Translations under genes and position numbers: made by a program
Notes under the pieces: model-generated
Seen by the model: the letters and a program-made list of their open reading frames with translations, nothing else
Told to the model about the DNA's origin: nothing
The model's database searches: none
Shown: positions 30,092 to 54,275 of the stretch, piece by piece
How the letters are laid out: the number at the start of each line of letters is the position of its first letter
Numbering within the stretch: position 1 is the first letter of the stretch
DNA from: Terriglobia bacterium
GTDB taxonomy: Bacteria; Acidobacteriota; Terriglobia; Bryobacterales; Bryobacteraceae
NCBI GenBank assembly: GCA_963696335.1
Contig: CAVOJS010000005.1
Span: 39,910 to 103,909, forward strand
Direction of reading: 5' to 3'
Length of the DNA: 64,000 bases

Positions 30092-30294
30092 TGGTGTCGA
30101 AGCCGGTCGCCTCGCAGGAGGGTTCGCTGCGTGACAGCTTCGCCCGGCCGGTTTCGGAGCCGAAAGAATCGGAATGAGCGCCCTGCCCGCCCCGAGCCAC
30201 GTTCTTATGCACGATTTCGATAGCCACATGCGACGCTGCAATCCCACGATAGCGATTCGATTGTCGACCATATGTTTCGGCCCCCGGTTCCGCG

Positions 30295-33370: not shown

Positions 33371-33396
33371 GCTTTTCGCTCCTGTATCCCGAGGGC

Positions 33397-34859: not shown

Positions 34860-34868
34860 AAACTCGTC

Positions 34869-37480: not shown

Positions 37481-37529
37481 CCTCTCACCTCATGCGAACG
37501 CTGTTTCGTTGCGTTCGAAGATCGCACCC

Positions 37530-38231
37530 TCAATGTCTGGTGTTCCCTGTCCCCAGGGTTTGCAGATACGCCATCAGATTCGCCACATCGGCATCACCAT
37601 AGCGCTCCAGTAATTTTAAATGCGCCGCGAGCCCCGCATCCGCATTCTCCAGCACCGCGCCGTCCGGACCCGGCCGGAGGAATCGCTTGCGTAGCGACGC
37701 TTCATCATACTTCCTCACGGCCGCCGCCAGATCGGCGCCGGCGTGGCACTTGCCGCATCCGCCCGCCCCGCGGAAATAGGTCTCGCCCGCCTGCGCGTCG
37801 CCCAACGCACGCTCCGATGCTGCGGAAAGCTCGCGGTAGCGTCCCTGCTCGCGCAAATAGTGAATGTACGCCGCGAGATCGGAAATCTGTTGCGGGGTAT
37901 AGTCCGGATACTGTGGCATGGCGGTCTGTAGATTCGGCAATCCCGCGCGCACGATCCCCCCGATCAGATTTCCTCCCTCATCCCGCCCGACCAGGGGAAG
38001 ATGCAGCAGGTCCGCCGCGCCCATCGCGGCGCCCGTCAGATCGATTCCGTGGCAAAAATGGCAGGAACTGATCACGTACACCGTCCGGCCCCGCTCCAAT
38101 TGCGCGGTCGGCGCCGGGTACCCGCCCGCGTCGCGTTTACCCTCGGGAGCCTGCGCCCAACCCACGCCGAGCGGCACGAGCCACGCGAGGAGGATCAAAC
38201 GCGCGAGGTCAATCACAATCGTTCGGCGCAT
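37530..38231 (-). CDS. Dihaem c-type cytochrome, secreted
   Basis: The CxxCH motifs are CHFCHG and CGKCHA. The gene starts 1 nt after the upstream TIM-barrel stop. Confidence 0.85.
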   Translation of the reverse strand: MRRTIVIDLARLILLAWLVPLGVGWAQAPEGKRDAGGYPAPTAQLERGRTVYVISSCHFCHGIDLTGAAMGAADLLHLPLVGRDEGGNLIGGIVRAGLPNLQTAMPQYPDYTPQQISDLAAYIHYLREQGRYRELSAASERALGDAQAGETYFRGAGGCGKCHAGADLAAAVRKYDEASLRKRFLRPGPDGAVLENADAGLAAHLKLLERYGDADVANLMAYLQTLGTGNTRH

Positions 38232-38232
38232 A

Positions 38233-39201
38233 TCAGGCCAGCGCTTCCCTGCAATAATCCATGCAGCGTTTCACTTCTTCGGTCGAGGAACGGAAGGATC
38301 CGTACTCGTACTCGATGTAGCAGCGGATCGGATAGCGCTTGTCGCGAATCAGCCTCAGGATCTCTCGAATCGGCGTGTCGCCCTGCCCGAAAGGCATGTT
38401 GCGCCCGTTGTTTCGCTTTCGATCCCGCACGTGGATATTCACGATCCGCGCGTGATGCTTTTCAAGAAACGCGAGCGGATCGTTGTTCCCCGCGACGAAG
38501 TGCCCGGTATCGAGCGTCACTTTGAAATATTCCGACATCGCAAGCGCCGTTTCAAAGCTTGCGGGCGTCGCGAACTGATCCGGATCGGCCAGATTATTGT
38601 GATTGTGCATCGCCACATACATTTTGTGACGCTCGACGAACGGCACCAGGCGCTTTGCTTCGCTCAGCACTGTCGACGAACTGAATCCTGCAACGCCCAG
38701 AGCCTTGGCCGCTTCGAAGGTCCGGTCGCGTTCTTCATCGGTGAACGTCTCGTTGAAGTTCACGTTGTACAGATACATACGCAGCCCGGCGTCGTCGAAT
38801 TGCTTGCGCACCGTGCGGTAATAATCCATCGGAATCGAAAGCCGCCACCGGCGCGCCTCCTCGCGCATTTTTGCATAACCCGCCGCGCGCCGCGTGGCCA
38901 CCCACCAGCCCGTCGCGTAGCTGCCCATCGGCTCCACGTGCCCGGACATGATCTCGCACTCGGCGATCCCGGCCTGCTTCATGTCCTCGATCAGCGTCGG
39001 GATCAAGCTTCGATCGCCCGCCGGCGGCAGATCGTGAAAGCTGAACGTTTCGACGCCAAACGTGACGCCGGAAATGATTGTGGGTTGAAACGCCGCGGCC
39101 GCCCCCGCCCTCTCCGGGGAGGATATCAAGCCGGCCGCCGCGGGGAGTCCCGCCAGGGCCAGCTTGCCGATCTGTCTTCGCGTATACATTCGCGATTTCA
39201 C
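38233..39201 (-). CDS. Tat-signal xylose-isomerase-like TIM-barrel protein
   Basis: The Tat motif is YTRRQIGK. The conserved block is IHVRDRKRNNGRNMPFGQGDTPIREILRLIRDKRYPIRCYIEYEY. The start is GTG 39201 or ATG 39189. Confidence 0.9.
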   Translation of the reverse strand: MKSRMYTRRQIGKLALAGLPAAAGLISSPERAGAAAAFQPTIISGVTFGVETFSFHDLPPAGDRSLIPTLIEDMKQAGIAECEIMSGHVEPMGSYATGWWVATRRAAGYAKMREEARRWRLSIPMDYYRTVRKQFDDAGLRMYLYNVNFNETFTDEERDRTFEAAKALGVAGFSSSTVLSEAKRLVPFVERHKMYVAMHNHNNLADPDQFATPASFETALAMSEYFKVTLDTGHFVAGNNDPLAFLEKHHARIVNIHVRDRKRNNGRNMPFGQGDTPIREILRLIRDKRYPIRCYIEYEYGSFRSSTEEVKRCMDYCREALA

Positions 39202-39208
39202 AGTCTCC

Positions 39209-40240
39209 TTAGGCGCAGCGCAGCGCCAGGCCGTTACGCTCGGCGAAGCTCAGCGCTTCCACCGCGGCCCCGCGCGCCCCGGCCGTATCCCCGTTCGGCA
39301 TGATATAGATCGGAATGTCGGTCTGCTCTTCCCGCTGAATCGGCATCCCCGCTCGAATCTCATCCACGAACCAGCGCTGAAACTCGCGCGTTGTCTCGAG
39401 CGCCCCTCCGCCCACGATCAGGGCGTCGGGATCGAAGGTGTTGATCATCTCGTCGAAAAATAATCCCAGCGCATGCGCCTGCACGCGGAAGATGGCACGG
39501 CACATCGCGTCGCCGCTTTCCGCCAGCCCTCGCACCAGCCGCGCCGCGTACGCTCGATCGTCGATATTGTGCAGATCGTGGCCCGGATATTTCGATAGAA
39601 AATGCGGGAGCAGCGACTTGTGGATCGCCGTCAGCGAGCACAGCGATTCCAGGTCGCCTCTGCGCCAGCAGTTACACTGCAATTCCAATCCCTCGACGTC
39701 CGCAATCGAACGCGTCGGAATTAATACGTGCCCCAGTTCCCCGCCGAATCCGCGCCGCCCCTTGACCACGTTCCCGTCGATAATGATGCCGCCGCCGAGG
39801 CCAGTCCCGATCACGGTGGTGATCGAAGTCGCGGGCTTCTTCGTTCCGAAAATCGAATAATGACCCCACAGGGCCGCCGCGTTTCCGTCGTTCAGATACG
39901 TCACCGGCTTCGCGAGCCGCTCCGCCAGCCGTCCTCGAATGTCGAATCCAATCCAGCGCGGATGTCCGAAGTTGGTCGAACCGCGCGCGCTCAATACACC
40001 ATCGGCGCTGGCCGGACCGGGCGTATCCAGGCCAACCACGGCGATCTCCTCCATCTGCACGCCGGCGCGCCCCGCGGCCATCTGGAGCCCGGCGGCGATC
40101 TGCTCGAGACAAATCTCCGGTCCTTCCGTCGACCGCGATGGGTACTCGCACAATCCCTCGATCAGGAATTTTTCCTGACCGTCAACCAGGGTATAGTTCA
40201 CGGCCGTTCCACCGAGATCTACACCAGCAACAATTGCCAT
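39209..40240 (-). CDS. ROK-family sugar kinase
   Basis: Family-like sequences are AGVDLGGTAVNY, YLNDGNAAALWG, GTGLGGGIIIDG and GGELGH. A Cys-rich segment reads LQCNCWRRGDLESLCS. Confidence 0.85.
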   Translation of the reverse strand: MAIVAGVDLGGTAVNYTLVDGQEKFLIEGLCEYPSRSTEGPEICLEQIAAGLQMAAGRAGVQMEEIAVVGLDTPGPASADGVLSARGSTNFGHPRWIGFDIRGRLAERLAKPVTYLNDGNAAALWGHYSIFGTKKPATSITTVIGTGLGGGIIIDGNVVKGRRGFGGELGHVLIPTRSIADVEGLELQCNCWRRGDLESLCSLTAIHKSLLPHFLSKYPGHDLHNIDDRAYAARLVRGLAESGDAMCRAIFRVQAHALGLFFDEMINTFDPDALIVGGGALETTREFQRWFVDEIRAGMPIQREEQTDIPIYIMPNGDTAGARGAAVEALSFAERNGLALRCA

Positions 40241-40411
40241 ACTCTTCCTTTGCGCGCTTACCGCGTACAGGGCGGCCGCCAGAATCTCCGTTCAGTAATA
40301 CGTCGATGTCTCAATTCCCGTACCGCCGTGGAAATTTCCGACGACCCGCCCGTTCCAGCCGCGAACGATTTTTCCGGCCATATCGGTCACCGTCCTCTTT
40401 CCCGCCTGGAA

Positions 40412-40891
40412 TCATCCCAGAAATGCAATGGCGCGTCCGGCCCAGCCCACGCCGAACCACAGAAACAGCGAAATCAGCGGCAGGACCACCAGCCGCCTGC
40501 TTGCATGCGCGGCCGCCTCGGCTCTCACCACCCGCCGATACACCGTGTACTGAAAAAGTATCGCGACCAGGAGAACGATCATCTTAACGTTAAATGATGT
40601 GTTGGCCGCATAGCGCGCGGGATCCGGCAAAAAGACAAAAAAGCCCGAAACGGCCGCCAGAATGAGCCCCGCCGTTCCCCAACTCCAGACCTGCTTCGCG
40701 AGCACCTCCAGCTTGATCTCCTGAAGACCGATCCCGAGCAGGCGGAAATTCAGAATCACCATCGAACCGAGCAGAAGCGTAATGCCGAATAAGTGAAACG
40801 CCTGGATCACGGGAATCGCCAGATGCGAATTACGCAGAATATCGATCGTCGGGGAGCTGTACGACATCTGCCAGAGGCGTTGAAGTCTCAT
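40412..40891 (-). CDS. Integral membrane protein (4 predicted TM helices), paralog of 40904..41389
   Basis: IPVIQAFHLFGITLLLGSMVILNFRLLG aligns with FPVVEGSHILALSLSVGLILMLDLRLLG in the neighbouring gene. Hydrophobic segments run throughout the protein. Confidence 0.7.
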   Translation of the reverse strand: MRLQRLWQMSYSSPTIDILRNSHLAIPVIQAFHLFGITLLLGSMVILNFRLLGIGLQEIKLEVLAKQVWSWGTAGLILAAVSGFFVFLPDPARYAANTSFNVKMIVLLVAILFQYTVYRRVVRAEAAAHASRRLVVLPLISLFLWFGVGWAGRAIAFLG

Positions 40892-40903
40892 CGCATTTCC
40901 CCG

Positions 40904-41389
40904 TTACAGTTCATACGCGGTGAGCCGTCCGCACAGGATCACGGCCATCCACAGCACCAGCGACGTCGCCGCCACCACCTTCACTCCCGCCGGAACCGAC
41001 GGCGCCGCATCCCACTCCGCCATGTGCGGATAATATTTGTATTGATAAAAAGCCGCGTTCAATCCCAAAAGGGCCAGCGTTAAAATCTTCACCCGAAAAT
41101 AATTATTGGTGTAAACCGACTCGGCTTGCGCAAAAAACAACAGCAGTCCGCTTCCGAACACCACGGCGAAGCCGGGCAGCGCCCACGGCATCACCTGCAG
41201 CATGATGCGCGAAATCGGCTCGCTCCGGAATGCCAGGCCCAACAGCCGGAGGTCCAGCATCAGAATGAGGCCAACCGATAGCGACAAAGCCAGAATGTGG
41301 CTTCCTTCGACAACCGGAAAAATGAAATCGGCCTGGCGAAACCACGTCGCCCACGCCGTGTTTTGAATCCAGTGAAAGAGTGCGAGCAT
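40904..41389 (-). CDS. Integral membrane protein, paralog of 40412..40891
   Basis: The likely start is ATG 41389 (MLALFHWIQNTAW...). The ORF could extend to 41467. Confidence 0.65.
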   Translation of the reverse strand: MLALFHWIQNTAWATWFRQADFIFPVVEGSHILALSLSVGLILMLDLRLLGLAFRSEPISRIMLQVMPWALPGFAVVFGSGLLLFFAQAESVYTNNYFRVKILTLALLGLNAAFYQYKYYPHMAEWDAAPSVPAGVKVVAATSLVLWMAVILCGRLTAYEL

Positions 41390-41530
41390 CCGCTTGTTTC
41401 CCGCGAACCTGGCGTCCCGCGAAATACCGTCCGGATGCGCGCCGCAAAATCCATCTCTTGCACGCAACGAACCCAGCCGGGTCCATGGATCGAGGACCCT
41501 CGCCCGGGCTGGACGATTTCGCGCGACCGG

Positions 41531-41938
41531 CTACTCGCCGCCTTCTCCCTTCGGACGGGCGATGTCGTGATACAGACGCTTGCCGTCCGGCAGGATCGCA
41601 TAAAAGAGGGAGGCGCCCTTGGTGACCCCGTCTTTCATCGGATGGGCCACCAGCTTGACATGATCGCCGGCCTTGAATGTCGCGCGTGTCCAGCCTTGGC
41701 GGCCCATGATATTCGTCGCTCCGCCTTCGATGTCCCAGGTGCCTACTGTCGAAGGATCGGCCGCGCCCGGATCCACCTTCACGATGATGTGCGTGTGGGG
41801 ATTCTCCCAGCGGTACTCGATGACCGTGCCTTCATAGGTGGTGTCCCTCGTCAGATCGAACATCGCGAAGGAATGGTGGGCGAGAACGGGAATCGCGCCC
41901 GTAAGCAGGCCGGCCATAACAATCCATTTTGCCTTCAT
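41531..41938 (-). CDS. Small secreted protein, DUF6152-like (family assignment from memory)
   Basis: The signal peptide ends in ...PVLAHHSFAMFD. It carries WENPHTHIIV and a beta-rich remainder. Confidence 0.65.
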   Translation of the reverse strand: MKAKWIVMAGLLTGAIPVLAHHSFAMFDLTRDTTYEGTVIEYRWENPHTHIIVKVDPGAADPSTVGTWDIEGGATNIMGRQGWTRATFKAGDHVKLVAHPMKDGVTKGASLFYAILPDGKRLYHDIARPKGEGGE

Positions 41939-41979
41939 AAATCGAAACTCCTTTTACCGTCACAGCTCCACAATCGAAC

Positions 41980-42708
41980 TTAGTTTTTAGGCGCGCCTCC
42001 TGGCGCTCCCAGCAAATAATTCGCCCGCGATTCGTCGCTGGCGTTGCAATCGTATTCCCGCAGCTCCGTGCCCCGCGGGGCGCGATAGTAGCGAAACTCG
42101 TAGGTATGGGGGCGCTGAAATACCTTGGCGTCTTCCCATGTGAAAACCACCGATAGGCGCTTGCCTTGATCGAGCAGCTGGAACCGCTCCACCAGATGGG
42201 AATCCGCCGTGCGGCGTCCACCGCCGGGAATCCGCGTGATGCCTTCATCGGAAAAACCGATCGTGTCGACCACCAGCGTTTCGCCGTCCCAATGCCCGAT
42301 GGAATTACCGCCGGATACCGGATCGAACGTTTCCGCGCTCACGTGCCCCCGCCCGTCCATGTAAATATGGCGCGAAGGATTGCGCAGACCGGTCACGATC
42401 AGCATTTCCTTTCCGTTGGTGTCCTGCACGATATCGAGCGGCGAAGCGTTCATCACATACGGAACACCGAAAAAATGACACCACCGGACCGCATTCCGGT
42501 CATGCTGAAACTGGACGTGTGGATCTTCCGCGGCCATCGCCGGCGTCAGCGCGGCCGGCGGCACGTTCGCACTATCCACCCGGAGCTCCCAATAGCCCGA
42601 AAGATCGGGCCTGCTCGTCTGCGCATATCCCGCGCTCGCCGTTCCCACAAGCATCACCGCGGCCAGCATTGTCCCGTCGAGTCTCGCGCGGCGCTTCCCC
42701 GGCGTCAT
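41980..42708 (-). CDS. Secreted protein of the SGxW family, subtype C1
   Basis: Motifs are DLSGYWEL, YMDGRGH, GNSIGHWDGETLVVDTIGFSD and IPGGGRR, with a Cys pair (RWCHFFG ... YDCNASD). It has an ATGA overlap with the upstream gene. Confidence 0.8.
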   Translation of the reverse strand: MTPGKRRARLDGTMLAAVMLVGTASAGYAQTSRPDLSGYWELRVDSANVPPAALTPAMAAEDPHVQFQHDRNAVRWCHFFGVPYVMNASPLDIVQDTNGKEMLIVTGLRNPSRHIYMDGRGHVSAETFDPVSGGNSIGHWDGETLVVDTIGFSDEGITRIPGGGRRTADSHLVERFQLLDQGKRLSVVFTWEDAKVFQRPHTYEFRYYRAPRGTELREYDCNASDESRANYLLGAPGGAPKN

Positions 42709-43478
42709 CGTTGCACCGGCTGGACGACCGAGCCGCCTTGGGCTTCATCGTCGGCATGGCAGTATTCTTCAAATGCGTAGGTCCCTGGCGCGGACCGATG
42801 ATAGGTCATCTCGTAGGTGTGGGGCTTGAGGTAAATCGCCGGATCGTCCCAAGTGGATGTTACCGAGAGCACGTTTCCTCCCTCGATCAGCCTGAAGCGC
42901 TCGACCAGGTGCGTTCCGGGGCCCACGCGTCCTCCCCCCGGAGTCGCTCCTCCGCCTGTAAACCCGATCGTGTCAACCACCAGCGTGTCGCCTTCCCAAT
43001 GGCCGATCGCGTGGCCGTTCACCGATCTCAGCAAATGTTCGGCGTCCGGATGCGGTCTGCCGTCAAGATAGATGTGCCGCGCGAAGGTGTGCACCTCAGG
43101 CGCCTGGACGATCTCGTCTTTGGACTGGGCGATGTCCCACGCCGCCGAATGCTGCATGAAGAACGGATACGAATTCGTCAGACACCACTTCGATCCGAAC
43201 GAAACCACGTCACCGCGCGCCTGGGCGGCCGCCTGCCGTTTGGCTTCTTCGATATATTCCGGCTTGATCGAGGCGCGTGGAATCCGCTCCAGCGTCCCGC
43301 CGAAGCTCCCCCCGCCGAACTCGTCTTTGCGTTCCCAGAATCCCGACAAATCCGGCGCCGTCCCGGTTTGCGCCATCGCATGAGCGGCGCCGAGCGCCAT
43401 CCCGCCCGCGAGCATAGCCGCCAGGATCGCCCGGCGGCGCGCACTATTATCGTTCCTGTTCACAACTGCTCTCCCCAC
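42705..43478 (-). CDS. Secreted protein of the SGxW family, subtype C2
   Basis: Motifs are DLSGFWER, YLDGRPHPDA and GHAIGHWEGDTLVVDTIGF, with a Cys pair (KWCLTNS ... EYCHADD). The N-terminus SARRRAILAAMLAGGMALGAAHAMAQ may be a Tat-type signal. The GTG start lies 2 nt after the upstream stop. Confidence 0.8.
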   Translation of the reverse strand: MGRAVVNRNDNSARRRAILAAMLAGGMALGAAHAMAQTGTAPDLSGFWERKDEFGGGSFGGTLERIPRASIKPEYIEEAKRQAAAQARGDVVSFGSKWCLTNSYPFFMQHSAAWDIAQSKDEIVQAPEVHTFARHIYLDGRPHPDAEHLLRSVNGHAIGHWEGDTLVVDTIGFTGGGATPGGGRVGPGTHLVERFRLIEGGNVLSVTSTWDDPAIYLKPHTYEMTYHRSAPGTYAFEEYCHADDEAQGGSVVQPVQR

Positions 43479-43480
43479 CT

Positions 43481-44755
43481 CTAGCGCGCCAGCCCGATAC
43501 TTTTGGCCCAGTAATTCGCGTTGCCGATGTAGCCTAGATCCGGCAAGTACGAAAGGATCGTCCGGCGCATCTTCAGCATGCTGATCTCCCCGGCTTCCTG
43601 AAAAATCACCTTGCCCTCAGGTGAGAACACCATCGTAAACGGCACGCCCGAATCCCAGCTCTTATCGAACGCCTCCTGCAGCGCATACACATCATCGGTC
43701 GCGAATTGATAATTCCGCACCGCCGAATGATGCTGATTGAGAAACTTCTGCACGGCCGCCTTGGCCTCCGGAGGATCAGTTGAAACCGTTACCACTTCGA
43801 ACTCACGGCTCCGATACCACAGATGGGTCTTCAGAATATCGTCGAATTCCTCGACGCAAGGACCGCACCAGGTGGCCCAGAAGTTGATCATGAGGTACTT
43901 CTTGTCCGGGTTGGAGCGGAGCTTCTTCAATCCGGCCGCGTCGATCGCTTCGAGCCTCACCGGCTGGGCCATCCATTCCTTCATCTCGTCTTCGCGGCGG
44001 CCCGTCTGCTGCTTCCACTTGATGCTGCAGCCGAACACCGGGCGTTCCGGAAATTCCACGGGTTTGCCCGCGATCAGTTGATCGATGGCGTTGCGCGCGT
44101 CGGTAATCTTCACGCGATCCTCGCGCATCGCATCGTCGATCCGGCCTTCGTAGCGCAGCTTGCGGTCTTTGTCGAAAACGAAGATGTGCGGCGTATTCTT
44201 CGGCCCATAAAGATGCGCGATGTTCTGCGTATCGCCGTCGTAAAGATAGGGGAAGTTGAACTGCTTGAACTTCGCGTGCACCTTCATGCTTTCGAGCGAA
44301 TCATCCACATCGGCGAAGTTCAGCTCGTGCGGCGCGAGCGCAGCCACCGCGTTGGGCTGGATCGCGAGAAACTGCACGCCCTTGGCCTTGTAGTCCGTCA
44401 CCATCTTCTCAATCCGGCCCTCGTACAATTGCGATGCCGGGCAATGATTGCAAATGAACAGAACCGCGAGCACCGGACTCGTTTTCCAATCCGCGAGCGT
44501 ATGCGTTTTGCCGTCGATGCCCGGAAGTTTGAAATCGGGCGCCTGCGCGCCGATTTTCAACGTCGGATTCAGGCGGAAGCCTTCCTCCATGTCGAGCTGA
44601 TGCTGCGACTTCACACCGCCCTTGGCGACCGCCCCCGCGCCATCCTGCGAGAATGCTACCGTCGCGCTGATCGTGCACGCGAGCGCTCCGGCGAGCACAA
44701 TTCCCACGCGCGGCGCCGCCCGTTTTGCCGCATCGCGTTGTATCGAATGTGCCAT
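43481..44755 (-). CDS. Secreted protein with two thioredoxin-fold (TlpA/redoxin-like) domains
   Basis: Domain 1 has LFICNHCPAS (CxxC) and domain 2 has FWATWCGPCVEEF (WCGPC). The signal peptide is ...VGIVLAGALACTISATVAFSQ. Confidence 0.85.
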   Translation of the reverse strand: MAHSIQRDAAKRAAPRVGIVLAGALACTISATVAFSQDGAGAVAKGGVKSQHQLDMEEGFRLNPTLKIGAQAPDFKLPGIDGKTHTLADWKTSPVLAVLFICNHCPASQLYEGRIEKMVTDYKAKGVQFLAIQPNAVAALAPHELNFADVDDSLESMKVHAKFKQFNFPYLYDGDTQNIAHLYGPKNTPHIFVFDKDRKLRYEGRIDDAMREDRVKITDARNAIDQLIAGKPVEFPERPVFGCSIKWKQQTGRREDEMKEWMAQPVRLEAIDAAGLKKLRSNPDKKYLMINFWATWCGPCVEEFDDILKTHLWYRSREFEVVTVSTDPPEAKAAVQKFLNQHHSAVRNYQFATDDVYALQEAFDKSWDSGVPFTMVFSPEGKVIFQEAGEISMLKMRRTILSYLPDLGYIGNANYWAKSIGLAR

Positions 44756-44869
44756 GGTCCAATTTCCTCCCGAACCATTGGGCAGCCCGAAGGCCGCCTC
44801 TTGTTACGGTAACTCCGCGATCCCCCGTTCGTACCCGGCGAGGAATCCGATCTCCTGCAGACGCTCGAC

Positions 44870-45904
44870 TTAGGCCAACGCCCGCCGGCAGAACTGCACA
44901 GCCTTACTCACCTCGCCCACCGGATCGAGCGTTCCGGCATGCTCATACTCGATGAACGCCGGAATCGGATATTTTTCCTTCTTCAGCAACTGCAGGACTT
45001 CCCGGATCGGCGTGTCTCCTTCGCCCCAGGGAACACTGGCGCCATCCTCTTCGGTCTTCGACTGATTCCTCTTCCGATCCTTCAAATGCAAATTCGAGAT
45101 GCGCTCGTGAAAGGATTTGATGAACTCGACCGGGTTCTCGCCGGTCGCCGCATAGTGCCCAATGTCCAGATTCGCGCCCACCCATCGGGAGAGCGCGAAG
45201 GCCTTCTCGAACGTGGCGCGCGTCGAGAAATGCTCGGGATCCCACGTCGCGCTGTGCCCGTGCGGAGCGATCATCATCCGGTTTTTCTCCGCGAACGGCA
45301 CCAGCCGCTTCAGCATCGTCATCGTGGTCGAAACGTTCACGGACTTGCATCCGAGCGCGGTGGCGAATTGAAAGGTGCGATCGATCTCCCGGTCGGACCA
45401 CTCGGGACCGGCCATCGGATTGTAAGCGTAGACCCTGATTCCCGCCGCGTCGAATCTTTTGCGGATAGCCGTGAAGGCATCGAGCGAAACGGTCTCGCGC
45501 CAGTGTTTTTCGGCCGCGCGGGCCGTTTCCAGGGCCTTCCCATCCAGCCGCTTGAATTCCCACGCCCAGGGATTGCGGGCGCTGCCGCCCTTCGCCGCCG
45601 AGCAACCCAGGAACGGTTGCGGGCAATCCGCCGGCGCGGGCACTTTCCCCGTCATCGTTCCCGGCTCGATCTGCGGCGCGAAGAGTTCGCACTCGTCCAG
45701 GCCGCAAGCCTGCATCTTCTGGATGATCTGGCTGGTATGATCCTGCCCGTCATTCAGAATGTCGTGAAAGCTGTACGTTTGAACGCCGAGTTGCACGCCG
45801 GCGACGGTGGAGTTCGCGCTCGCTCCCGCCGCATGCAGCCTCCACGCGGAGAGCGGAAAGCTCGCGGCGGCAACCGTGGCGAACTTTCTTCTCGTAAGGA
45901 TCAC
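44870..45904 (-). CDS. Tat-signal xylose-isomerase-like TIM-barrel protein
   Basis: The Tat motif is ILTRRKFAT. The conserved block is LHLKDRKRNQSKTEEDGASVPWGEGDTPIREVLQLLKKEKYPIPAFIEYEH. The start is GTG 45904. Confidence 0.9.
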   Translation of the reverse strand: MILTRRKFATVAAASFPLSAWRLHAAGASANSTVAGVQLGVQTYSFHDILNDGQDHTSQIIQKMQACGLDECELFAPQIEPGTMTGKVPAPADCPQPFLGCSAAKGGSARNPWAWEFKRLDGKALETARAAEKHWRETVSLDAFTAIRKRFDAAGIRVYAYNPMAGPEWSDREIDRTFQFATALGCKSVNVSTTMTMLKRLVPFAEKNRMMIAPHGHSATWDPEHFSTRATFEKAFALSRWVGANLDIGHYAATGENPVEFIKSFHERISNLHLKDRKRNQSKTEEDGASVPWGEGDTPIREVLQLLKKEKYPIPAFIEYEHAGTLDPVGEVSKAVQFCRRALA

Positions 45905-46032
45905 GGCCGCCCCCGCTGGTTCCGCGAACCGGCCGGGTCCGGGCGGGAGGTGACAGGAAGCTCCGCGAATCGATCTGGCGTTTCCGATTTCATCGTCTTC
46001 CTGCCTCCCCGTCGTGTCCAGTCGCTGCGGCC

Positions 46033-49000
46033 TTAGAACAACAACTTCAGCGCGAACTGGATGTCGCGCGGCGTATAGAACGCGTTCATCGTCGTGATTT
46101 TGCCGAAGTTGCCGGCATTGGTCGGCACACCCGCGCTGGTGAAACCGCTGATCGTCGTGCCCGGCATCCCGAACGACGGCGTGTTGGCCACGTTGAAGCC
46201 TTCGGCGCGGAACTGCAGCGTCCAGCCTTCTCTCACGCGGAAATCCTTAAAGACCGATAAGTCGATCCGCATATTGTGCGGCATGGTGAAGTCGTTGTGA
46301 CCTTCGTTACCCGCCGTGCCGAACGGCTGTTTGGCGAACTGCGTGATGTCAAACCACTCGTTGATACTTTGCGAATAGCCCTGTCCGGCGACGACGTTCG
46401 GGCGATCCGAGGTCACGCCGAAGGAGTTCTGCTGAGCGCTCCCGTCGAGCACGGTGAACGGCTGCCCCGTTCCGAACGAGTAAATCCCGTTGAGCTGCCA
46501 GCCCTTGCCGAGCACTCCCGCCGCGCCTTTCCAGGTCTTACCGAAGGGCAATTCGTAATTGCTGGCGAGCGTATAGCGGAACTTTGCCATGTAATCGCTT
46601 GGACCGTAGTCGCGCGCCAGATTATTCCACACCTGGCCACAGCCGGTGCAGGCGCCGCCTGTGCTGCCCACGTCGGAAAGATCGCTGGCCCACGTGAAGC
46701 TGGAGTCGACGGTCAACCCCTTCGAGAGACGGCGGCGGAAGATCACTTGCATTGCCGTGTAATTGGCAACACCATTCGTCTCCAAAAGCTGGATGGTGCC
46801 GACCAGCGGCAGCGTGCTGGCAAAGGGCAGACACGGGCTGCCGAAGCCCACGGTTGTCGTGACACCGCAGCCGCCGGGACCGAGCGGAGGAAGATTCGTC
46901 GCGATGTTCGGAATCACGCGGCCCAGGTTGCGCACGGGTTCGGCCACGAATCCCACGCTCAAAACGTTGCCCCAGAATTCCTTCTCCAGGGTGAGGTTGG
47001 TCATGTAAACGGTGGTGTTGTGGTACGGGATCTGGGTCCCGGAACCCACCGAAAAACCGCTCGGCGTGTAGCCCGGCGAACCCGTGGACGCTCCGCAAGC
47101 CGCTACCAGGCAGATCGAGTTTGCGACCACCGCGGGCGTAGCCTGGCTGACCGTCTGACTCGGCGTGGCGGTCTGATTGATCGTGTAATTGGACACCAGC
47201 GGCGCGTTCTTCAAGTTGGCCGGCGAAGCCACGTTATTCGGCCAATAGGACATGCCGAATCCCCCCCGGAGCACCAGGCCGTGCCCCAGCGTCGCGGCGA
47301 AGCCCAGGCGCGGCTGCACGTCGCCCCACTGCGTCCCGATATTGACCGAATCGCTGACACCCGCCGCTCCCGCAACCTGAAGCATGCCCGCGGCGAGAAT
47401 GGCCGGGTTGGTGGGATCGAAGTTGGAGAGCGCGTCATGCTTCGCGGTGATGGGCGTGTAGATGTCCCAGCGTAAACCGGCGTTGACGGTCAGCCAGCGC
47501 GTGGCGCGCCAGTTGTCCTGGATGTAATCGCCGATTTCCCAATCCCGGTATTGCGGCGCCGCGAGCGACATGTTGCGCACGGAACTCGCGTAATACCCCG
47601 TCAAGAGAGAAGCCAGCGAGTTGCCGCCGCTGCCCGAGGAGGAACCAGTCGTGCTGGTCTGGGCGGAATTGATATTGAACTCCTGCTTGAACAGAATCTG
47701 GTACGTGCTCCAATCGCGCCGCAGCAGGCTCGCGCCGAATTTGATCGTATGCGCGCCTTTCGTCCAGGTGAGCGATCCGCCGTATTGGTAGTTGGTATCC
47801 CAATACGCCGTGGGCAGCGCGAAACCATCCCCCAGGTCGGCGTAGCCGCCGTTCTGGAAATTGAGGAGCGCCAGGCCGCCGGTGGCCGGGATGCTAGGAG
47901 TATTGACGTTGGCCGGTCCGCCGAATGCCGTATTCCCGTTCACGCCCTGATTGGCGCTTGAGGAGATGGTCACGTAGCGGGCGAGCTGCGCGTTGAGCTG
48001 CAGCACCATGGTCGGCGAGAAAATGTGGACGTCACTGAAGGACAACGCCTGCTGCCGCTGGTATGCCGACCCCGGGAAGGCGTTGGTGTTCAGCGAACTG
48101 GGCTGCGGAATGGTCACGCCGGCGACCGTAGCCGTGGGGAGATAACCCGGCGAGAAGGTATCCGTGTTGTTGACCGAATAACGCGCGAAGAAGTTGTCTG
48201 TATCGGAGAAGTGCTGGTCGATGCGGGCGTCGCCAATGTGCGCGTATTGCGTCTGGTTCGGGCTCGAGACAAACAAGCACGTCGGCGAGCCGCAATTCAG
48301 CGTCGGGTACAGGGCCGCGTAGTTGGCGGCCACGGAATTGATGCTCGACAGGGGAATGACGTTGTTGGCGTACTGCACATGGCTGACGGGGTCGTAGATC
48401 GGCGCGCTTTGGTCGGAGAAATTCCCAAGCTGCTGCACGCCGTTGCACGCGATGCGGCCGAGTTCGCATGCCGAGGGAATCGTCGCCTGGAAGGTATTGC
48501 CCTGGATCTTACGGAAGCCTTCGTAGTCGGCGAAGAAGAAAGTCTTGTCCTTCTTAATGGCGCCGCCGACGGAGCCGCCGAACTGATTCTGGCGATACTC
48601 GGGCCGCACACCGGCGAGCGGATTGCCGGCTTGCGGGACGTTGAAGAAGTTCTTCGCGTCGGTCGCGTCGTTGCGAAGAAACTCGAAAAGCGAGCCATGG
48701 AGATTGTTCGTACCGGACTTGGTGATTACGTTGATCACCGCGCCGCCCGCGCGGCCTTCCTCGGCCGGATACATGTTCGTGTCGACCTTTACTTCTTGTT
48801 GCCCGTCGATCGAGGGCTTCACGATGATCGTCGCGATCGCGCGCTCGTTGTTATCCATGCCGTCGAGCAGGAAGTTGTTTGCCGAATCGTTCTGGCCGTT
48901 GGCCGAGACCGCCGAGCTCTGGCGGCGATCGTCGGGACGCGTGCCGCTGCCTAGCGAGCTCTGCACGGATTCCGTCGCGCCCGGAGCGAGTTGCACCAGG

Positions 49001-49476
49001 CGGATAAAGTTTCGCCCGTTCACCGGCAGGTCCTGCACGGCCTGGCTGGTGACCAGCCCGCCGACCGTGGAGCTATCGGTTTGCAGAGCTACGGTCTGCT
49101 CGGCTACTTCGACCGTTTGCGTTAGTTCGCCGACTTGCAACTGCGCGTCCACGCGGTTGCGGTCGCCGGTTGCGAGCGTCACCTGCTCCTGCTTATAAGC
49201 CTTGAACCCCTGGGCCTCCACGGTGACGGTGTAGGTGCCCACGGGCAAAAGCGCGAACGAGTACTCGCCCGCCGAAGTCGTCTGCTGAGTACGCGTGAGG
49301 TTGGTGCCCAAATTCTTCGCGGTGACCTTAGCGTTGGCGACTACCGCTCCGGAATTATCGGTGATCGTACCGACGATGTCGGCCGTGCCTTGAGCGAAGA
49401 GCGCCGCGCCGCCCGCGGCCATGCACCAAGCCAGAATAAGACTCCTTAACAATGACCGCTTCATGGACCCCTTCAT
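46033..49476 (-). CDS. TonB-dependent-receptor-like outer-membrane protein with carboxypeptidase-regulatory-like N-terminal domain
   Basis: The likely start is ATG 49476 (MKGSMKRSLLRSLILAWCMAAGGAALFAQ). It carries the motif LPVNGRNFIRL and the C-terminal sequence FALKLLF. Confidence 0.9.
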   Translation of the reverse strand: MKGSMKRSLLRSLILAWCMAAGGAALFAQGTADIVGTITDNSGAVVANAKVTAKNLGTNLTRTQQTTSAGEYSFALLPVGTYTVTVEAQGFKAYKQEQVTLATGDRNRVDAQLQVGELTQTVEVAEQTVALQTDSSTVGGLVTSQAVQDLPVNGRNFIRLVQLAPGATESVQSSLGSGTRPDDRRQSSAVSANGQNDSANNFLLDGMDNNERAIATIIVKPSIDGQQEVKVDTNMYPAEEGRAGGAVINVITKSGTNNLHGSLFEFLRNDATDAKNFFNVPQAGNPLAGVRPEYRQNQFGGSVGGAIKKDKTFFFADYEGFRKIQGNTFQATIPSACELGRIACNGVQQLGNFSDQSAPIYDPVSHVQYANNVIPLSSINSVAANYAALYPTLNCGSPTCLFVSSPNQTQYAHIGDARIDQHFSDTDNFFARYSVNNTDTFSPGYLPTATVAGVTIPQPSSLNTNAFPGSAYQRQQALSFSDVHIFSPTMVLQLNAQLARYVTISSSANQGVNGNTAFGGPANVNTPSIPATGGLALLNFQNGGYADLGDGFALPTAYWDTNYQYGGSLTWTKGAHTIKFGASLLRRDWSTYQILFKQEFNINSAQTSTTGSSSGSGGNSLASLLTGYYASSVRNMSLAAPQYRDWEIGDYIQDNWRATRWLTVNAGLRWDIYTPITAKHDALSNFDPTNPAILAAGMLQVAGAAGVSDSVNIGTQWGDVQPRLGFAATLGHGLVLRGGFGMSYWPNNVASPANLKNAPLVSNYTINQTATPSQTVSQATPAVVANSICLVAACGASTGSPGYTPSGFSVGSGTQIPYHNTTVYMTNLTLEKEFWGNVLSVGFVAEPVRNLGRVIPNIATNLPPLGPGGCGVTTTVGFGSPCLPFASTLPLVGTIQLLETNGVANYTAMQVIFRRRLSKGLTVDSSFTWASDLSDVGSTGGACTGCGQVWNNLARDYGPSDYMAKFRYTLASNYELPFGKTWKGAAGVLGKGWQLNGIYSFGTGQPFTVLDGSAQQNSFGVTSDRPNVVAGQGYSQSINEWFDITQFAKQPFGTAGNEGHNDFTMPHNMRIDLSVFKDFRVREGWTLQFRAEGFNVANTPSFGMPGTTISGFTSAGVPTNAGNFGKITTMNAFYTPRDIQFALKLLF

Positions 49477-49759
49477 GTGTATTGCCCCCAATCGGTTTAC
49501 GAACAGTGATTCGACACGGCATCCCGGACATGGGCTGCTGCGTGGTAGCACCATGACTTTGTTCCGCGGGAGGCCGGACGGCGCTCCCAAAAACGCGACT
49601 TCCCAAAGCTATACCCGTTTGGCGGGTTTACAAGCTCGGAACGGTTTCATTACAGAGAACGAAGGGGATCTTTCCTGTTTTGATGAAGTTGGCCACTCTC
49701 GCGCGGACGTATCACCGCGTAATAATACGGTTATCTGAAGATTCCTTGGAACGAACTGT

Positions 49760-50806
49760 CTACCAGAAACGGGTGGCCAGCACGTGCGGAGGACCCGCGA
49801 CGCGGCCGACGACGCTCGCTGAGATCAAAATTTCCATGTTCTTGTGATCCCAGCCCGGCGGAGCTGCGGCGGCGAAATCCGTCATGCACTTCTCGCAGGT
49901 TAGAAAGTCGCCGGCGGCCTCGGTGCCGAACATTGCGAGCCCGGCCGCGGTCACCACGATTTTTCCCGTGGACGGGTCCACCAGGCGCGACACAATCGCG
50001 TAGTCCAGCTTGACATCCGCGTAGGGTGCGCTCATCACGTGCATCCACCGGCGATGACCCGGATCCTGCGTATCCTCAATCCAGCTCTGGTGCGAATCCT
50101 GGTTGTGATCGAACCGGAAGCGCAGTTGCCGCGTAAGCTGGAGCACCCAGGAATTGTTGAATGCCCCGATCAGCACGGCCGACCCGTCGCGGAGATCCTC
50201 CACTTGCGCCATGGGCTGAAGCCGCAGCCGATAGGACTGATGACGACCCGTCATCAGCGCAACCAGGCGGGCCATTGCCGTTGCATCCTCGAAGGCAACC
50301 TGCTCCGATTGATGAAGATCCGAGAGCGTGTTCACCGGCGCGACGGGGACGTCCTGACCGATATAGATGGTGACTGTCCCGCCGGAGCCGATGACCGGCG
50401 CCCAAAACCGATCGAGCGCGCTCGACGGCGCCCACCATCGCCCCACCAGAAATGTGACCACGACGAGCGCCGCGATCCCCCCGGCGATTGCATACGGATT
50501 GCGCCGCGTCACCGGCTTCGCCGCGGCCGGCTCGGGCAGAGGACTCACCACCGCGGGTTGAGCCGGCATCCGGAACTCCGGCATGTATGTGCCGGGAGGG
50601 AAATCGATCCGGATCTCGGCCTCGTGGCCGGGCTCGTGGTAATACTGCGCGATGCGCTTGCGAATCTCGACCGCTGTCGTGCGAACCACCGGATCAAGAT
50701 TGGTGTCGTAGTCGGGCTCGCGTCCGAAAACCTCGATGCCGAGCGTGCGTTCCTTCAACGGCTCGGTATGACCTTTCAGCGCGCGTTCCACCACAAAGCC
50801 CAACAA
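49760..50806 (-). CDS. Single-pass membrane protein with an N-terminal cytoplasmic helical module and a periplasmic C-terminal domain. The start codon is unresolved.
   Basis: It carries LGFVVERALKGHTEPLKERTLGIEVFGREPDYD...VRTTAVEIRKRIAQYY, then the TM segment AIAGGIAALVVVTFLVG. Homologous-looking coding sequence continues in frame upstream to 50974 without an ATG, GTG or TTG codon. Confidence 0.7.
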   Translation of the reverse strand: MLGFVVERALKGHTEPLKERTLGIEVFGREPDYDTNLDPVVRTTAVEIRKRIAQYYHEPGHEAEIRIDFPPGTYMPEFRMPAQPAVVSPLPEPAAAKPVTRRNPYAIAGGIAALVVVTFLVGRWWAPSSALDRFWAPVIGSGGTVTIYIGQDVPVAPVNTLSDLHQSEQVAFEDATAMARLVALMTGRHQSYRLRLQPMAQVEDLRDGSAVLIGAFNNSWVLQLTRQLRFRFDHNQDSHQSWIEDTQDPGHRRWMHVMSAPYADVKLDYAIVSRLVDPSTGKIVVTAAGLAMFGTEAAGDFLTCEKCMTDFAAAAPPGWDHKNMEILISASVVGRVAGPPHVLATRFW

Positions 50807-51007
50807 CGTCGGATAGCGTTTGCTGTTCTTAAACAGCGGACTCGTTAGGATGCGGTCCAGTTGCTCTCGGATGGCGCTGCGTTCGGCGTCTGTTTCGGGA
50901 ACCCAAGCATGAGAGCTATGAGACGGTTTCTCGAGCGGCGGAACCTGCGTACAACACCCCCGCCGGGGATTATATCACTCTGGCCGGAACTGCATCGTTC
51001 AGAAAGA

Positions 51008-52429
51008 TCAGGAAATTTTGGTGGCTTTATAGCCGCCTTTGGATCGGTCATAGAACCAGATCCCGGCAAAGACGAACAGCAGTACGGCGGGCACAGCCGC
51101 CACATCGCGGAACGACGTCTGCGCGGCAATTCCCAGAACACGATCCAGCTCGGGGCCGGGCTCGAGAGCTTTAAATGCGGCATCGCCGCCCGCTGCCTGA
51201 ACTTTCGTGGTGTCGTAGATGCTGCCCATGATCGGAAGAACAAACTGGATGGAGAGAGTTCCGGCCGTACCCATGAGCCCCATCAACAAAGCGCCGCCGC
51301 GCGGAAATCGCTCGGACGCAGCCGCGAGCATGGTCGGCCACATGTAACAGCATCCGGTGCCCCAGATCGTCGCCGCGACCAGAGCCGTCACGGGAGAATT
51401 GGCAACGCTCAACGCGTACAATCCGATCCCCGCGCCCAGGCACGAAAACCATAAAACCCCGACCGGAGACAGCTTGTGGACCAACGGCCCCGCAAAATGC
51501 CGCATCAAAAACATCAGGCCGCTCACGTAAACCAGCAGCAGGATGCCCGGCATGTGAACCGTCCGGCTCAACGCGAAATCCACCCACTGTCCCGGCGCCA
51601 GTTCCGATGCCGCGGTCAGGAACATGCAGGCGAACAGCACGAAGAAGAGCGGATTGAGCAGCTCCTTAAACATGTCCTTCGCCGAGATACCGGCCGCAAC
51701 GCGTTCCGTCGGCGGAAACTTCAGTCCCGCGCAGAGCACCAGCAGCATGACCGCGGGAACCATCACCACGGCCAGCTTCCACTGCCAGCCGATATCGACC
51801 TTCGACATCCCCACGCCGAGCAATCCCCCGATGACCAGCCCTCCCGGCCACCACGCATGGACTGCGTTCAATTTGCTGGTCTTATCGTCCGGATAGAGCG
51901 AGGCGATCATGGGATTCGTAACCGTTTCCACCAGTCCCCAGCCGATTCCCGTCACCAGGGCGCCGATCCATAACACGTCGTAGATCCCCGCGCCCGACGC
52001 GAGCGACCCGGCGAAGATCATGATCAATGCGCCGATCGAAAATAATACCCCCGAGAGCGGCAGCAGCAAACCCATCCCGATGTAGTCGAGCAGAGGACTC
52101 CCGATCGCGATCGTGACCGCATATCCGAGGAACGGCAGCCCGAGAATCGCGCCGATCATCTCGGCGGATTTGGCCTTGTCGATTGGATCTAAGAAGATGC
52201 GCTGCAGATCCGTCGCGGTGTTGGCGCGAAGCGAGGCAGCGATACCCGACATGGCCAGCGCGAGACTCCCCGCCGCGAACAAACGCGCCTTATGATAGAC
52301 AACCGCGCTCCCGGAGGGCGACGACTTTGTCGTTGATGGCGTTGCCGGTGATGGGGGCGTCGTGGATGAAGCGCTCATTTGAACCTCGGCGAGCGGTTTC
52401 CCCATCGGAGCGGAAACCTGCTCATGCAT
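51008..52429 (-). CDS. MFS transporter (sugar-type suspected)
   Basis: About 12 hydrophobic segments are visible. There is a Ser/Thr/Pro-rich N-terminus. Alternative Met starts are at 52405 and 52378. Confidence 0.8.
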   Translation of the reverse strand: MHEQVSAPMGKPLAEVQMSASSTTPPSPATPSTTKSSPSGSAVVYHKARLFAAGSLALAMSGIAASLRANTATDLQRIFLDPIDKAKSAEMIGAILGLPFLGYAVTIAIGSPLLDYIGMGLLLPLSGVLFSIGALIMIFAGSLASGAGIYDVLWIGALVTGIGWGLVETVTNPMIASLYPDDKTSKLNAVHAWWPGGLVIGGLLGVGMSKVDIGWQWKLAVVMVPAVMLLVLCAGLKFPPTERVAAGISAKDMFKELLNPLFFVLFACMFLTAASELAPGQWVDFALSRTVHMPGILLLVYVSGLMFLMRHFAGPLVHKLSPVGVLWFSCLGAGIGLYALSVANSPVTALVAATIWGTGCCYMWPTMLAAASERFPRGGALLMGLMGTAGTLSIQFVLPIMGSIYDTTKVQAAGGDAAFKALEPGPELDRVLGIAAQTSFRDVAAVPAVLLFVFAGIWFYDRSKGGYKATKIS

Positions 52430-54266: not shown

Positions 54267-54275
54267 ATATTATGT

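Follow-up and report, generated by a model that had tools for sequence, protein, structure and literature searches.

A conserved C–DUF6152–DUF6644 gene unit in an acidobacterial island and its possible likeness to CopC–CopD metal hand-off

In the CopC–CopD pairs of Escherichia coli (YobA-YebZ-YebY) and Bacillus subtilis (YcnJ/YcnI), a small secreted protein with an N-terminal histidine is encoded beside a CopD-type membrane protein. Secreted proteins that carry an N-terminal histidine are established metal chelators (PMC12537917), and the Cu(II) ligands of YcnI are the N-terminal histidine and a glutamate, with a tryptophan as a cap (PMC8424229). Mutation of His154 in YebZ, a residue at the periplasmic side, abolishes copper uptake; approximately 35% of CopD sequences are four-helix forms, and some are fused to Sco- or thioredoxin-like domains (PMC11923076). 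The CopD histidine is also required in YcnJ (PMC13344008). These systems are compared here with module I, an eight-gene cluster at positions 40412-49476 of a 64,000-nucleotide stretch of DNA (the window) from a Terriglobia bacterium (contig CAVOJS010000005.1 of assembly GCA_963696335.1). Module I is a composite of a conserved core, C2-C1-DUF6152-DUF6644-DUF6644, and lineage-specific additions. By analogy, and with a probability of roughly 0.35, the core is interpreted as a CopC/YcnI–CopD-like system for the hand-off of a metal, probably copper, coupled to a ligand-binding heterodimer of C proteins. The genes of module I are as follows.

46033..49476, minus strand: TonB-dependent-receptor-like outer-membrane protein of the acidobacterial type, 1147 aa (CarboxypepD_reg, E = 1e-20; OMP_b-brl_4, E = 4e-194)
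44870..45904, minus strand: xylose-isomerase-like TIM-barrel enzyme with predicted export by twin-arginine translocation (Tat), 344 aa (AP_endonuc_2, E = 5.6e-18)
43481..44755, minus strand: secreted or membrane-anchored two-domain thiol:disulfide oxidoreductase, 424 aa (AhpC-TSA/Redoxin and Thioredoxin_8)
42705..43478, minus strand: C2, predicted to be Sec-exported, of a family outside Pfam, 257 aa (gene caller start at 43463)
41980..42708, minus strand: C1, a paralogue of C2, 242 aa (ATGA overlap with C2)
41531..41938, minus strand: DUF6152, a small protein predicted to be Sec-exported, 135 aa (PF19649, E = 8e-27)
40904..41389 (open reading frame to 41467), minus strand: DUF6644 no. 1, a small inner-membrane protein, 161 aa (PF20349, E = 3.9e-9)
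40412..40891, minus strand: DUF6644 no. 2, a four-helix inner-membrane protein, 159 aa (PF20349, E = 1.1e-13)

The original prediction had described co-directional minus-strand genes with short spacers in this order, and all eight elements are present as described, with spacers from 49476 to 40412 of 128, 114, 2, –4, 41, 63, and 12 nt. The finer points of the layout were borne out as well. C2 starts 2 nt after the thioredoxin stop, where the junction reads TAG-AG-GTG; the ATGA overlap of C2 and C1 at 42705-42708 was confirmed by reading the junction; the small secreted protein with an HHSF motif is the DUF6152 protein (...VLA/HHSF, the slash marking the cleavage site); and the two membrane proteins are paralogous (27% identity, E = 1e-16), the second having four hydrophobic segments. 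For the first DUF6644 gene, the ATG at 41389 is the probable start, giving a product of 161 aa, in line with relatives of 161-163 aa; the spacer upstream of the gene is then approximately 141 nt, versus 63 nt when counted from 41467.

The gene arrangement exceeds chance, since the order recurs in independent genomes. A scan of 37000-51500 returned 4 promoters versus 3.8 in shuffled sequence and 19 terminators versus 13.2; these counts are near the shuffled expectation, and the operon boundaries are therefore not given by the scan. The GC content across the module (0.59-0.62) is like that of the remaining window and gives no hint of recent transfer. No riboswitch was returned by Rfam for the window or for four related loci, the only matches being to a tRNA and, in locus L004, to the 5' ureB small RNA (sRNA).

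Synteny was read on the contigs that encode C2 homologues. The DUF6152 profile was run on one genome per species and returned at least 582 loci, distributed over Acidobacteriota (Bryobacterales and Vicinamibacterales), Steroidobacteraceae, Sphingomonadaceae, Caulobacteraceae, and other Alphaproteobacteria. Neighbors within 5 kb of DUF6152 were counted in the best 80 of these loci, with open reading frames (ORFs) labeled by phmmer. A C gene is found in 64 of the 80 loci, and in 60 it lies within 1.5 kb. DUF6644 is present in 30 loci, 27 of which carry two or more copies, and C and DUF6644 are both present in 21. The same count gave an acidobacterial-type receptor in 8 loci, a TIM barrel in 11, a thioredoxin gene in 4, a pyrroloquinoline quinone (PQQ) dehydrogenase in 11, and a cytochrome c in 10; the last two directly adjoin DUF6152 in L026 and L035. 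For the 23 closest DUF6152 loci, the corresponding figures are 19 for C and 17 for DUF6644.

The five core genes are found in identical order in L001/L006, L003, L004, and L005. The core is also present in the isolates Steroidobacter flavus CGMCC 1.10759 (L031) and Alteraurantiacibacter buctensis M0322 (L058). The whole of module I recurs in L001, a Bryobacteraceae metagenome-assembled genome (MAG) that is the nearest relative, and its flanks are those of the window: a major facilitator superfamily (MFS) gene and a sensor-like gene upstream, and ROK, TIM, cytochrome c, PQQ dehydrogenase, C2, C1, and TIM genes downstream. L003 holds C2-C1-DUF6152-DUF6644-DUF6644 alone, L004 holds three C genes with DUF6152 and two DUF6644 genes, and in L005 the receptor is directly ahead of C2 without a TIM or thioredoxin gene. 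True conservation is limited to C(-C)-DUF6152, to which two DUF6644 genes may or may not be joined, and the three core families form one conserved genetic unit across three lineages (Acidobacteriota, Steroidobacteraceae, and Alphaproteobacteria). Conservation of the receptor, the TIM barrel, and C2-C1 together, which had been put forward as a check, is true only in the nearest relative, L001/L006. What survives of the proposed complete envelope-spanning unit is that the genes form a conserved cluster, read in one direction, whose products belong to the outer membrane, the periplasm, and the inner membrane.

The DUF6152 protein matches PF19649 with 93.6 bits (gathering cut-off 27), which is its sole Pfam match, and has 1333 homologues of 113-185 aa, none of them fusions. 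Several members carry the JGI label 'YcnI'. In a set of 104 sequences from three lineages, the pattern A20/H21-H22-S-F is 91-98% conserved, and W44, N46, P47, H48, and E71 are conserved to the same degree. The cleavage site was assigned from the A-x-A-type pattern; with Sec cleavage at VLA/HH, the mature protein would start with His-His. By analogy, this N-terminus is a candidate metal site, and the conserved residues are of the same classes as those of the YcnI copper site (His, Glu, and Trp). The structural model is an oligonucleotide/oligosaccharide-binding fold (OB-fold) with a predicted local distance difference test score (pLDDT) of 85.5, for which Foldseek returned the LysRS N-domain and SSB/RPA at E-values of 2e-3 to 3e-2. 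Homology of DUF6152 to CopC/YcnI was considered and rejected because of the OB-fold model and of hhalign, in which one column aligned with YobA. A profile alignment with CusF is in register and is not significant (E = 0.066).

The two DUF6644 proteins of the window match PF20349 with 37.3 and 52 bits (gathering cut-off 27). Positively charged loops follow helices 1 and 3 of the second protein. In 49-55 sequences, three residues do not vary: H33 in helix 1, K103, and W145 (numbered as in the second copy). Weak Pfam matches were obtained among 49 members to DUF2214 (17/49), CopD (9/49, best E = 1.2e-5), and UPF0093/HemJ (2/49, E ~0.009), and a precomputed co-match to CopD (PF05425) is present in 9 of 120 homologues. 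DUF6644 would, from its sequence, be a CopD-like four-helix unit. There is one invariant His per four-helix subunit, and no equivalent of YebZ His135 is found within one subunit. The two paralogues are presumed to be heterodimer partners, and the eight helices of CopD would be reached only if both paralogues pair.

L059 (6396-7574) encodes a fusion of DUF6644 and a cytochrome c'-like domain that has a CESCH heme motif, and L087 has an 87% relative. L088 (4457-5631, 61%) encodes this cytochrome separately, as a lipoprotein (lipobox LTAC) whose gene immediately follows the second DUF6644. Since the fused cytochrome c' is periplasmic, the C-terminus of DUF6644 would be periplasmic too, and with the helix topology this places H33, K103, and W145 near the periplasmic face. 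In L019-L022 (Acidobacteriota and Vicinamibacterales MAGs), two DUF6644 pairs flank the periplasmic genes in the order DUF6644-DUF6644-C-C-DUF6152-DUF6644-DUF6644.

C2 and C1 share 38% identity (E = 8e-49). The C1-type copies of the window are 45-48% identical to one another versus 33-36% to the C2-type copies, and the two types form separate orthologous groups in the four pairs of the window; because the C1-types are closer to one another than to the C2-types, the C2-C1 pair is an old duplication. C2 has 4764 close homologues, for which every name given is 'hypothetical', and at a threshold of E ≤ 1e-3 the C family comprises 12,802 representative clusters. Searches of Pfam, NCBIfam, and PDB sequences returned no match for C2, and C1 is likewise without a Pfam match. 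A Pfam scan of 96 diverse C members at E ≤ 10 gave no recurrent family and no lipocalin or fatty-acid-binding protein (FABP) model, and neither single sequences nor profiles of C, DUF6152, and DUF6644 had a meaningful match in the PDB. The AlphaFold model of C2 is a β-barrel (pLDDT 78) with low-confidence loops. Foldseek with this model returned calycins of the cellular retinoic-acid-binding protein (CRABP)/FABP type at an E-value of 4.5e-4, with template-modeling (TM) scores of 0.5-0.58 when normalized to the target and only 0.31-0.34 when normalized to the query. The C proteins are thus modeled as predicted lipocalin/FABP-like barrels.

The residues of C that are conserved across lineages are W48 (on the SGxW strand, 89%), C99, R134, E193, R194, D212, and C240. 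The SGFW motif is kept, and the two cysteines, C99 and C240, are almost invariant. Tat export of C2 was considered because of SARRRAIL in the window protein, but the RR motif is found in only 5 of 110 homologues; C2 is therefore taken to be Sec-exported. A heterodimer of C2 and C1 is presumed because of the ATGA coupling and because tandem C-C proteins of 450-530 aa exist as natural fusions (18 of the best 150 C representatives).

C-like domains are also found in larger proteins. The gene immediately upstream of DUF6152 in L088 (842-3373) encodes 843 aa, in which a BD-FAE/carboxylesterase-like (feruloyl/acetyl-esterase-like) hydrolase and a C-like domain (hhalign E = 3e-5) are joined. Two larger proteins of the window, at 6089-7975 and 18036-19046 on the plus strand, have a divergent C-like domain with the motifs 'IDISGTW', 'RTIWMDGRPHP', and 'GxWxGNxL'; in the first, of 628 aa, the C-like domain is followed by a metallo-β-lactamase-fold domain. 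The fusions to the metallo-β-lactamase-fold protein and to the esterase-like hydrolase suggest that C-like domains bind organic substrates as ligands. The gene order cytochrome c-PQQ dehydrogenase-C2-C1 (with a following TIM barrel in some cases) was observed in three genomes: the window (32411-38231, minus strand), L001 (16157-20720), and L009 (474-4767). Some C pairs may, from this recurrence, be accessory to quinoprotein dehydrogenases.

The additions to the core are specific to lineages. The receptor has a CarboxypepD_reg domain at residues 34-114 and an OMP_b-brl_4 domain at residues 251-1140; the plug model PF07715 has no Pfam match in it, and residues 115-250 are presumed to be the plug. 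An orthologue with 63-70% identity lies directly upstream of the core in L001/L006, L005, L007, L008, and L012 and is missing from L003, L004, L010, L011, and L013. This dedicated orthologue is limited to the Bryobacterales/Solibacteraceae group (five distinct genomes), and the other receptors of the window are only 26-30% identical to it. The only recurrent Pfam families among 217 other neighboring ORFs were TonB-dependent receptors and further TIM barrels. In Proteobacteria the receptor frequency (7 of 121 neighboring ORFs) does not exceed a rough, uncomputed chance estimate for receptor-rich genomes, and the receptor was therefore left out of the universal core.

The TIM barrel matches PF01261 with 66 bits versus a cut-off of 31.1. 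Its N-terminus, MILTRRKFATVAA, begins MILTRRKF, in which TRRKF is a twin-arginine motif. The NCBIfam matches to IolE and L-ribulose-5-phosphate 3-epimerase are weak and far below the cut-offs, and the substrate is not assignable. The orthologue (71%) is found only in L001/L006 and not in L005, L007, L008, or L012. Four paralogues are present at other places in the window. The translation of the thioredoxin gene shows CNHC in the AhpC/TSA-Redoxin domain and WCGPC in the TlpA/ResA-like domain, and orthologues lie directly upstream of C2 in three lineages, L001/L006 (83%), L012 (63%), and L014 (54%). In the copper proteins ScoI and CoxB, the Cys pairs are reduced by TlpA ahead of metallation. The position of the thioredoxin gene would fit a similar, TlpA-like client relation. 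Orthologues of a ROK kinase, with 70-82% identity, are found downstream of DUF6644 in L001/L006, L010, L011, and L013.

In the metal hand-off proposed for the core, DUF6152 would be exported by Sec and cut after Ala20 so that His-His is exposed. This N-terminus would bind a transition-metal ion together with Trp44, His48, and Glu71 on the OB-fold; Cu(II) is the most likely ion by analogy, with Ni or Zn possible. The two DUF6644 four-helix halves would pair into an eight-helix CopD-like unit of the inner membrane, in which each half sets its invariant His, with the Lys and Trp, at the periplasmic leaflet. This unit would swap metal, and possibly electrons, with DUF6152, like CopD with CopC and YcnJ with YcnI. 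C2 and C1 would form a secreted heterodimer of lipocalin/FABP-like barrels, each with an Arg/Glu/Arg/Asp pocket and one Cys pair, and would bind the small organic molecule that the metal protein acts upon or acts together with. In the Bryobacterales lineage, the dedicated TonB-dependent receptor would bring this ligand across the outer membrane. The periplasmic double thioredoxin, where present, may control the Cys pairs of the C proteins, given that its gene is directly upstream of C2 in three lineages and that the two Cys of C are near-invariant. The additions, including the Tat-exported TIM-barrel enzyme, would embed the core in an island of periplasmic sugar and organic oxidation genes. 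The metal and its identity, the ligand, all contacts between the proteins, and the direction of transfer belong to this model, which is built on the observed gene order and conservation, the fold predictions, the conserved residues, and the CopD-like relation.

Several observations weigh against the metal hand-off. No His is broadly conserved in the C proteins, and the role of C in a metal relay is therefore undefined. The predicted fold of DUF6152 differs from that of YcnI and CopC, and homology to YobA is lacking. The two DUF6644 proteins of the window give no CopD match even at E ≤ 10, and the profile comparison of DUF6644 with E. coli YebZ, in which H33 aligns with His154, is weak (E = 0.11). 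No gene of copper, nickel, or zinc homeostasis (CopA, multicopper oxidase, Sco, PCuAC, CusF, or metal regulators) was found with Pfam to recur among the 217 neighboring ORFs. Two or three DUF6152 genes are present in 19 of the 80 loci, and both DUF6152 and C are multicopy per locus and per genome, a pattern more typical of catabolic families than of metal homeostasis. The steadiest partner of DUF6152 is C (80% of loci) and not DUF6644 (38%). The cytochrome c' fused to or adjoining DUF6644, together with the enrichment of PQQ dehydrogenase and cytochrome c, points to electron transfer at least equally.

A redox role is the main and a serious rival, and it has a real chance of being correct on odds that are clearly below even. 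The DUF6644 heterodimer would bind heme b between its two invariant His, as in SdhC/SdhD or HemJ, and link the quinone pool with periplasmic c-type cytochromes, DUF6152 would be a metal redox or oxidase center, and either the organic substrate or a lipophilic cofactor would sit in C; what the receptor imports would be oxidized or reduced beside PQQ dehydrogenases and TIM-barrel enzymes. The fusion or adjacency of DUF6644 and cytochrome c' in three contigs (L059, L087, and L088) is consistent with this role, but the cytochrome link comes from one lineage only. The invariant His, Lys, and Trp near the periplasmic face would resemble a heme pocket with propionate contacts, and UPF0093/HemJ matches were obtained in 2 of 49 DUF6644 members, although these are very weak (E ~0.009) and the CopD matches are stronger. 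The role also accommodates the PQQ dehydrogenase and cytochrome c genes (11/80 and 10/80 loci, adjoining DUF6152 in L026 and L035), the cytochrome c-PQQ-C2-C1-TIM order in the window, L001, and L009, the several paralogues per genome, and the fusions of C-like domains to an esterase and a metallo-β-lactamase-fold protein. However, one heme at one face cannot alone carry electrons across the membrane, and evidence for a quinone site or a heme is beyond the reach of sequence alone. The redox role, the metal hand-off, and the further readings below are partly compatible; a metal center serviced by a CopD-like unit could itself be catalytic.

The surroundings of module I bear on a further alternative. 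The same-strand run continues past 40412, with the ROK kinase after 171 nt, the TIM barrel after another 7 nt, and the cytochrome c after 1 nt, and a further gene lies upstream of the receptor.

40240->39209, minus strand: ROK-family sugar kinase (Pfam match)
39201->38233, minus strand: second Tat TIM barrel (Pfam match)
38231->37530, minus strand: c-type cytochrome (Pfam match)
49760..50806, minus strand: gene upstream of the receptor, possible membrane sensor or regulator (no Pfam match)

In the product of the upstream gene, a single transmembrane helix links an N-terminal domain in the cytoplasm to a periplasmic one of approximately 210 aa; the protein is possibly a single-pass membrane sensor or regulator. 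Its homologue in L001, of 397 aa, is in the same position, between the MFS transporter and the receptor. Conservation with L001 extends ~45 residues beyond the first ATG/GTG/TTG of the ORF (49760-50940, minus strand; 'HAWVPETDAERSAIREQL...'), and the gene therefore has a non-canonical start codon or a sequence error. In L001, a β-propeller gene (12997-14022; YNCE-like, with lactonase-type matches) that is not in the window is located between the second DUF6644 and the ROK kinase. In L004 (4653-12850), the gene set ureF-ureD-ureA-ureB-ureC-ureG, without ureE, lies 19 bp past the core on the same strand, a single case that hints at nickel; the 5' ureB sRNA of this locus is antisense in ureB. Genes of the Meth_synt_2 family (cobalamin-independent methionine-synthase-like, zinc) are neighbors in L004 and in two proteobacterial loci.

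The window as a whole is a Bryobacteraceae-like acidobacterial island. It contains five to six receptors of the module I type and seven xylose-isomerase-like TIM barrels, five of which are paralogues of the TIM barrel of the module, along with a PQQ dehydrogenase, three cytochrome-c genes, one Gfo/Idh/MocA oxidoreductase, a flavin mononucleotide (FMN) dehydrogenase, and an MFS sugar transporter. Four C2-C1 pairs are present, at 43478-41980, 30463-28530, 34859-33397, and 55151-53523, together with a single divergent C gene at 25302-24451. The three pairs outside the module (28530-30463, 33397-34859, and 53523-55151, all on the minus strand) each adjoin a Tat TIM barrel, without DUF6152 or DUF6644. 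Between a cytochrome c and the single C gene, at 25322-26712 on the minus strand, HbpS-like (GlcG-type) and DUF899 (thioredoxin-like) genes overlap by 4 nt. Module I had been singled out as the only module in which a receptor, a C pair, and inner-membrane proteins are contiguous. This holds for DUF6152 and DUF6644, which are found once in the window, in module I; it is qualified by the pair at 55151->53523, which precedes a TIM barrel and an MFS transporter.

The loose analogy of the original prediction to a polysaccharide utilization locus (PUL) leads to an unlikely alternative, a carbohydrate or glycoside unit in which the receptor imports, the TIM barrel and C2-C1 process or bind in the periplasm, the DUF6644 pair takes the product through the inner membrane, and the ROK kinase phosphorylates it. 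The receptor orthologue beside the core in five genomes, the ROK orthologue downstream of DUF6644 in four further genomes, and the MFS sugar transporter and sensor-like gene upstream in both the window and L001 would suit such a unit, as would the TIM barrels that recur near DUF6152 in Acidobacteriota and Steroidobacter and the Gfo/Idh/MocA, PQQ, and FMN dehydrogenases of the island. It is opposed by the eight genes themselves, in which no SusD-like protein, glycoside hydrolase, or lyase was found with Pfam, and among the genes of 37530-52429 there is no match to SusD-family proteins, glycoside hydrolases, polysaccharide lyases, or carbohydrate esterases, and xylose-isomerase-like TIM barrels are all that is found in their place. 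In addition, most core-bearing loci are without receptor, TIM barrel, and thioredoxin, the proteobacterial receptors (7 of 121 neighboring ORFs) are at about chance by the rough, uncomputed estimate, DUF6644 is like CopD/DUF2214 and unlike any sugar transporter family, and no role is given to the invariant His-His of DUF6152. The PUL analogy is weak: the envelope-spanning layout and the sugar-related neighbors agree with it, and the defining PUL parts and the nature of the membrane proteins do not. A link to a carbohydrate or organic substrate stays plausible in view of the TIM barrels, the ROK kinase, the PQQ dehydrogenases, and the fusions of C-like domains to an esterase and a metallo-β-lactamase-fold protein.

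It is quite unlikely, on present evidence, that DUF6152 is a new class of histidine-brace-type copper protein on an OB-fold which, with the calycin-like C proteins and a CopD/HemJ-like heterodimer, makes up a periplasmic oxidative system fed by cytochrome c. If so, this system would be an 'auxiliary activity' on organic compounds imported by TonB-dependent receptors, widespread in soil Acidobacteriota and Proteobacteria. Least probable is metal import, in which the receptor takes up a metal chelate, C2-C1 bind the chelator in the manner of a siderocalin, the metal is stripped off by DUF6152, and the CopD-like pair brings it into the cytoplasm for metalloenzymes: it draws on the same CopD-like and N-terminal-His evidence as the metal hand-off, on the core that lies 19 bp ahead of a urease (nickel enzyme) operon without ureE in L004, and on the Meth_synt_2 (zinc) neighbors in L004 and two proteobacterial loci, but only one locus shows the urease link, the surroundings include no metal regulator, riboswitch, or gene known from metal homeostasis, there are many paralogous copies, and most DUF6152-C loci are without DUF6644.

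The C (12,802 representative clusters), DUF6152 (at least 582 loci), and DUF6644 families are abundant in soil bacteria and are without an assigned function. No mention of DUF6152 or DUF6644 was found in the literature searched, and the unit of three families appears to be undescribed, as do the N-terminal-His protein with its predicted OB-fold and the split CopD-like pair. Each family gains a testable role: a metal protein with an OB-fold and an N-terminal His for DUF6152, a split four-plus-four-helix CopD for DUF6644, and a heterodimeric calycin for C. Were the metal hand-off true, the CopC/CopD paradigm would extend to a new fold, and Acidobacteriota, a phylum that is dominant in soil and poorly understood, would have copper (or another metal) tied to their periplasmic carbon-oxidation islands. 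Were the redox role true, the core would be a new extracytoplasmic electron-transfer or oxidase system, and if DUF6152 is a catalytic copper center, it would belong to a new kind of enzyme system.

Module I may finally be set beside the known systems. It is like PUL and other TonB-dependent carbohydrate loci in that a receptor with a carboxypeptidase-regulatory-like N-terminal domain heads a co-directional cluster with periplasmic enzymes, and in the presence of a sensor-like gene, a sugar kinase, and an MFS transporter; unlike in those loci, the core is independent of the receptor in most genomes. The C-terminal domain of the thioredoxin, with WCGPC, is like TlpA and ResA, whose models match below the cut-offs, but the protein has an added AhpC/TSA-like CNHC domain and is present in only 4 of the 80 loci. 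The C proteins are like lipocalin/FABP barrels in the CRABP/FABP matches of the C2 model and in the N-terminal SGxW strand, which resembles the lipocalin G-x-W motif. They differ from these barrels in a mature length of approximately 215 aa, an extra helical and loop region, the Cys pair, a charged pocket, and their occurrence as heterodimer-type pairs or tandem fusions.

DUF6152 is like CusF, a periplasmic OB-fold Cu(I)/Ag(I) metallochaperone, in being predicted as a small secreted OB-fold protein with a His near the mature N-terminus and a Trp beside the ligand residues on the first hairpin, and, across the signal peptide and strands 1-2, its alignment with E. coli CusF is in register. Unlike CusF, it is without the Met-X-Met ligands and a CusCBA efflux partner, and the alignment has an E-value of 0.066; the His/Glu set in place of Met-X-Met suggests Cu(II), Ni, or Zn over Cu(I). 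From CopC and YcnI, which are immunoglobulin/cupredoxin-like, DUF6152 differs in its predicted OB-fold and in having no sequence relation to YobA. The core as a whole differs from the CopC–CopD pairs in that its membrane part is two separate paralogous genes, in the obligatory extra partner from the C family, in neighbors that include no copper-homeostasis genes, and in the several copies per genome. It resembles them in the small protein, predicted to be secreted with an N-terminal His, that is encoded beside a candidate CopD-type membrane protein, in the weak CopD/DUF2214 matches, in the alignment of H33 with YebZ His154, and in the two four-helix subunits that would together supply eight helices.

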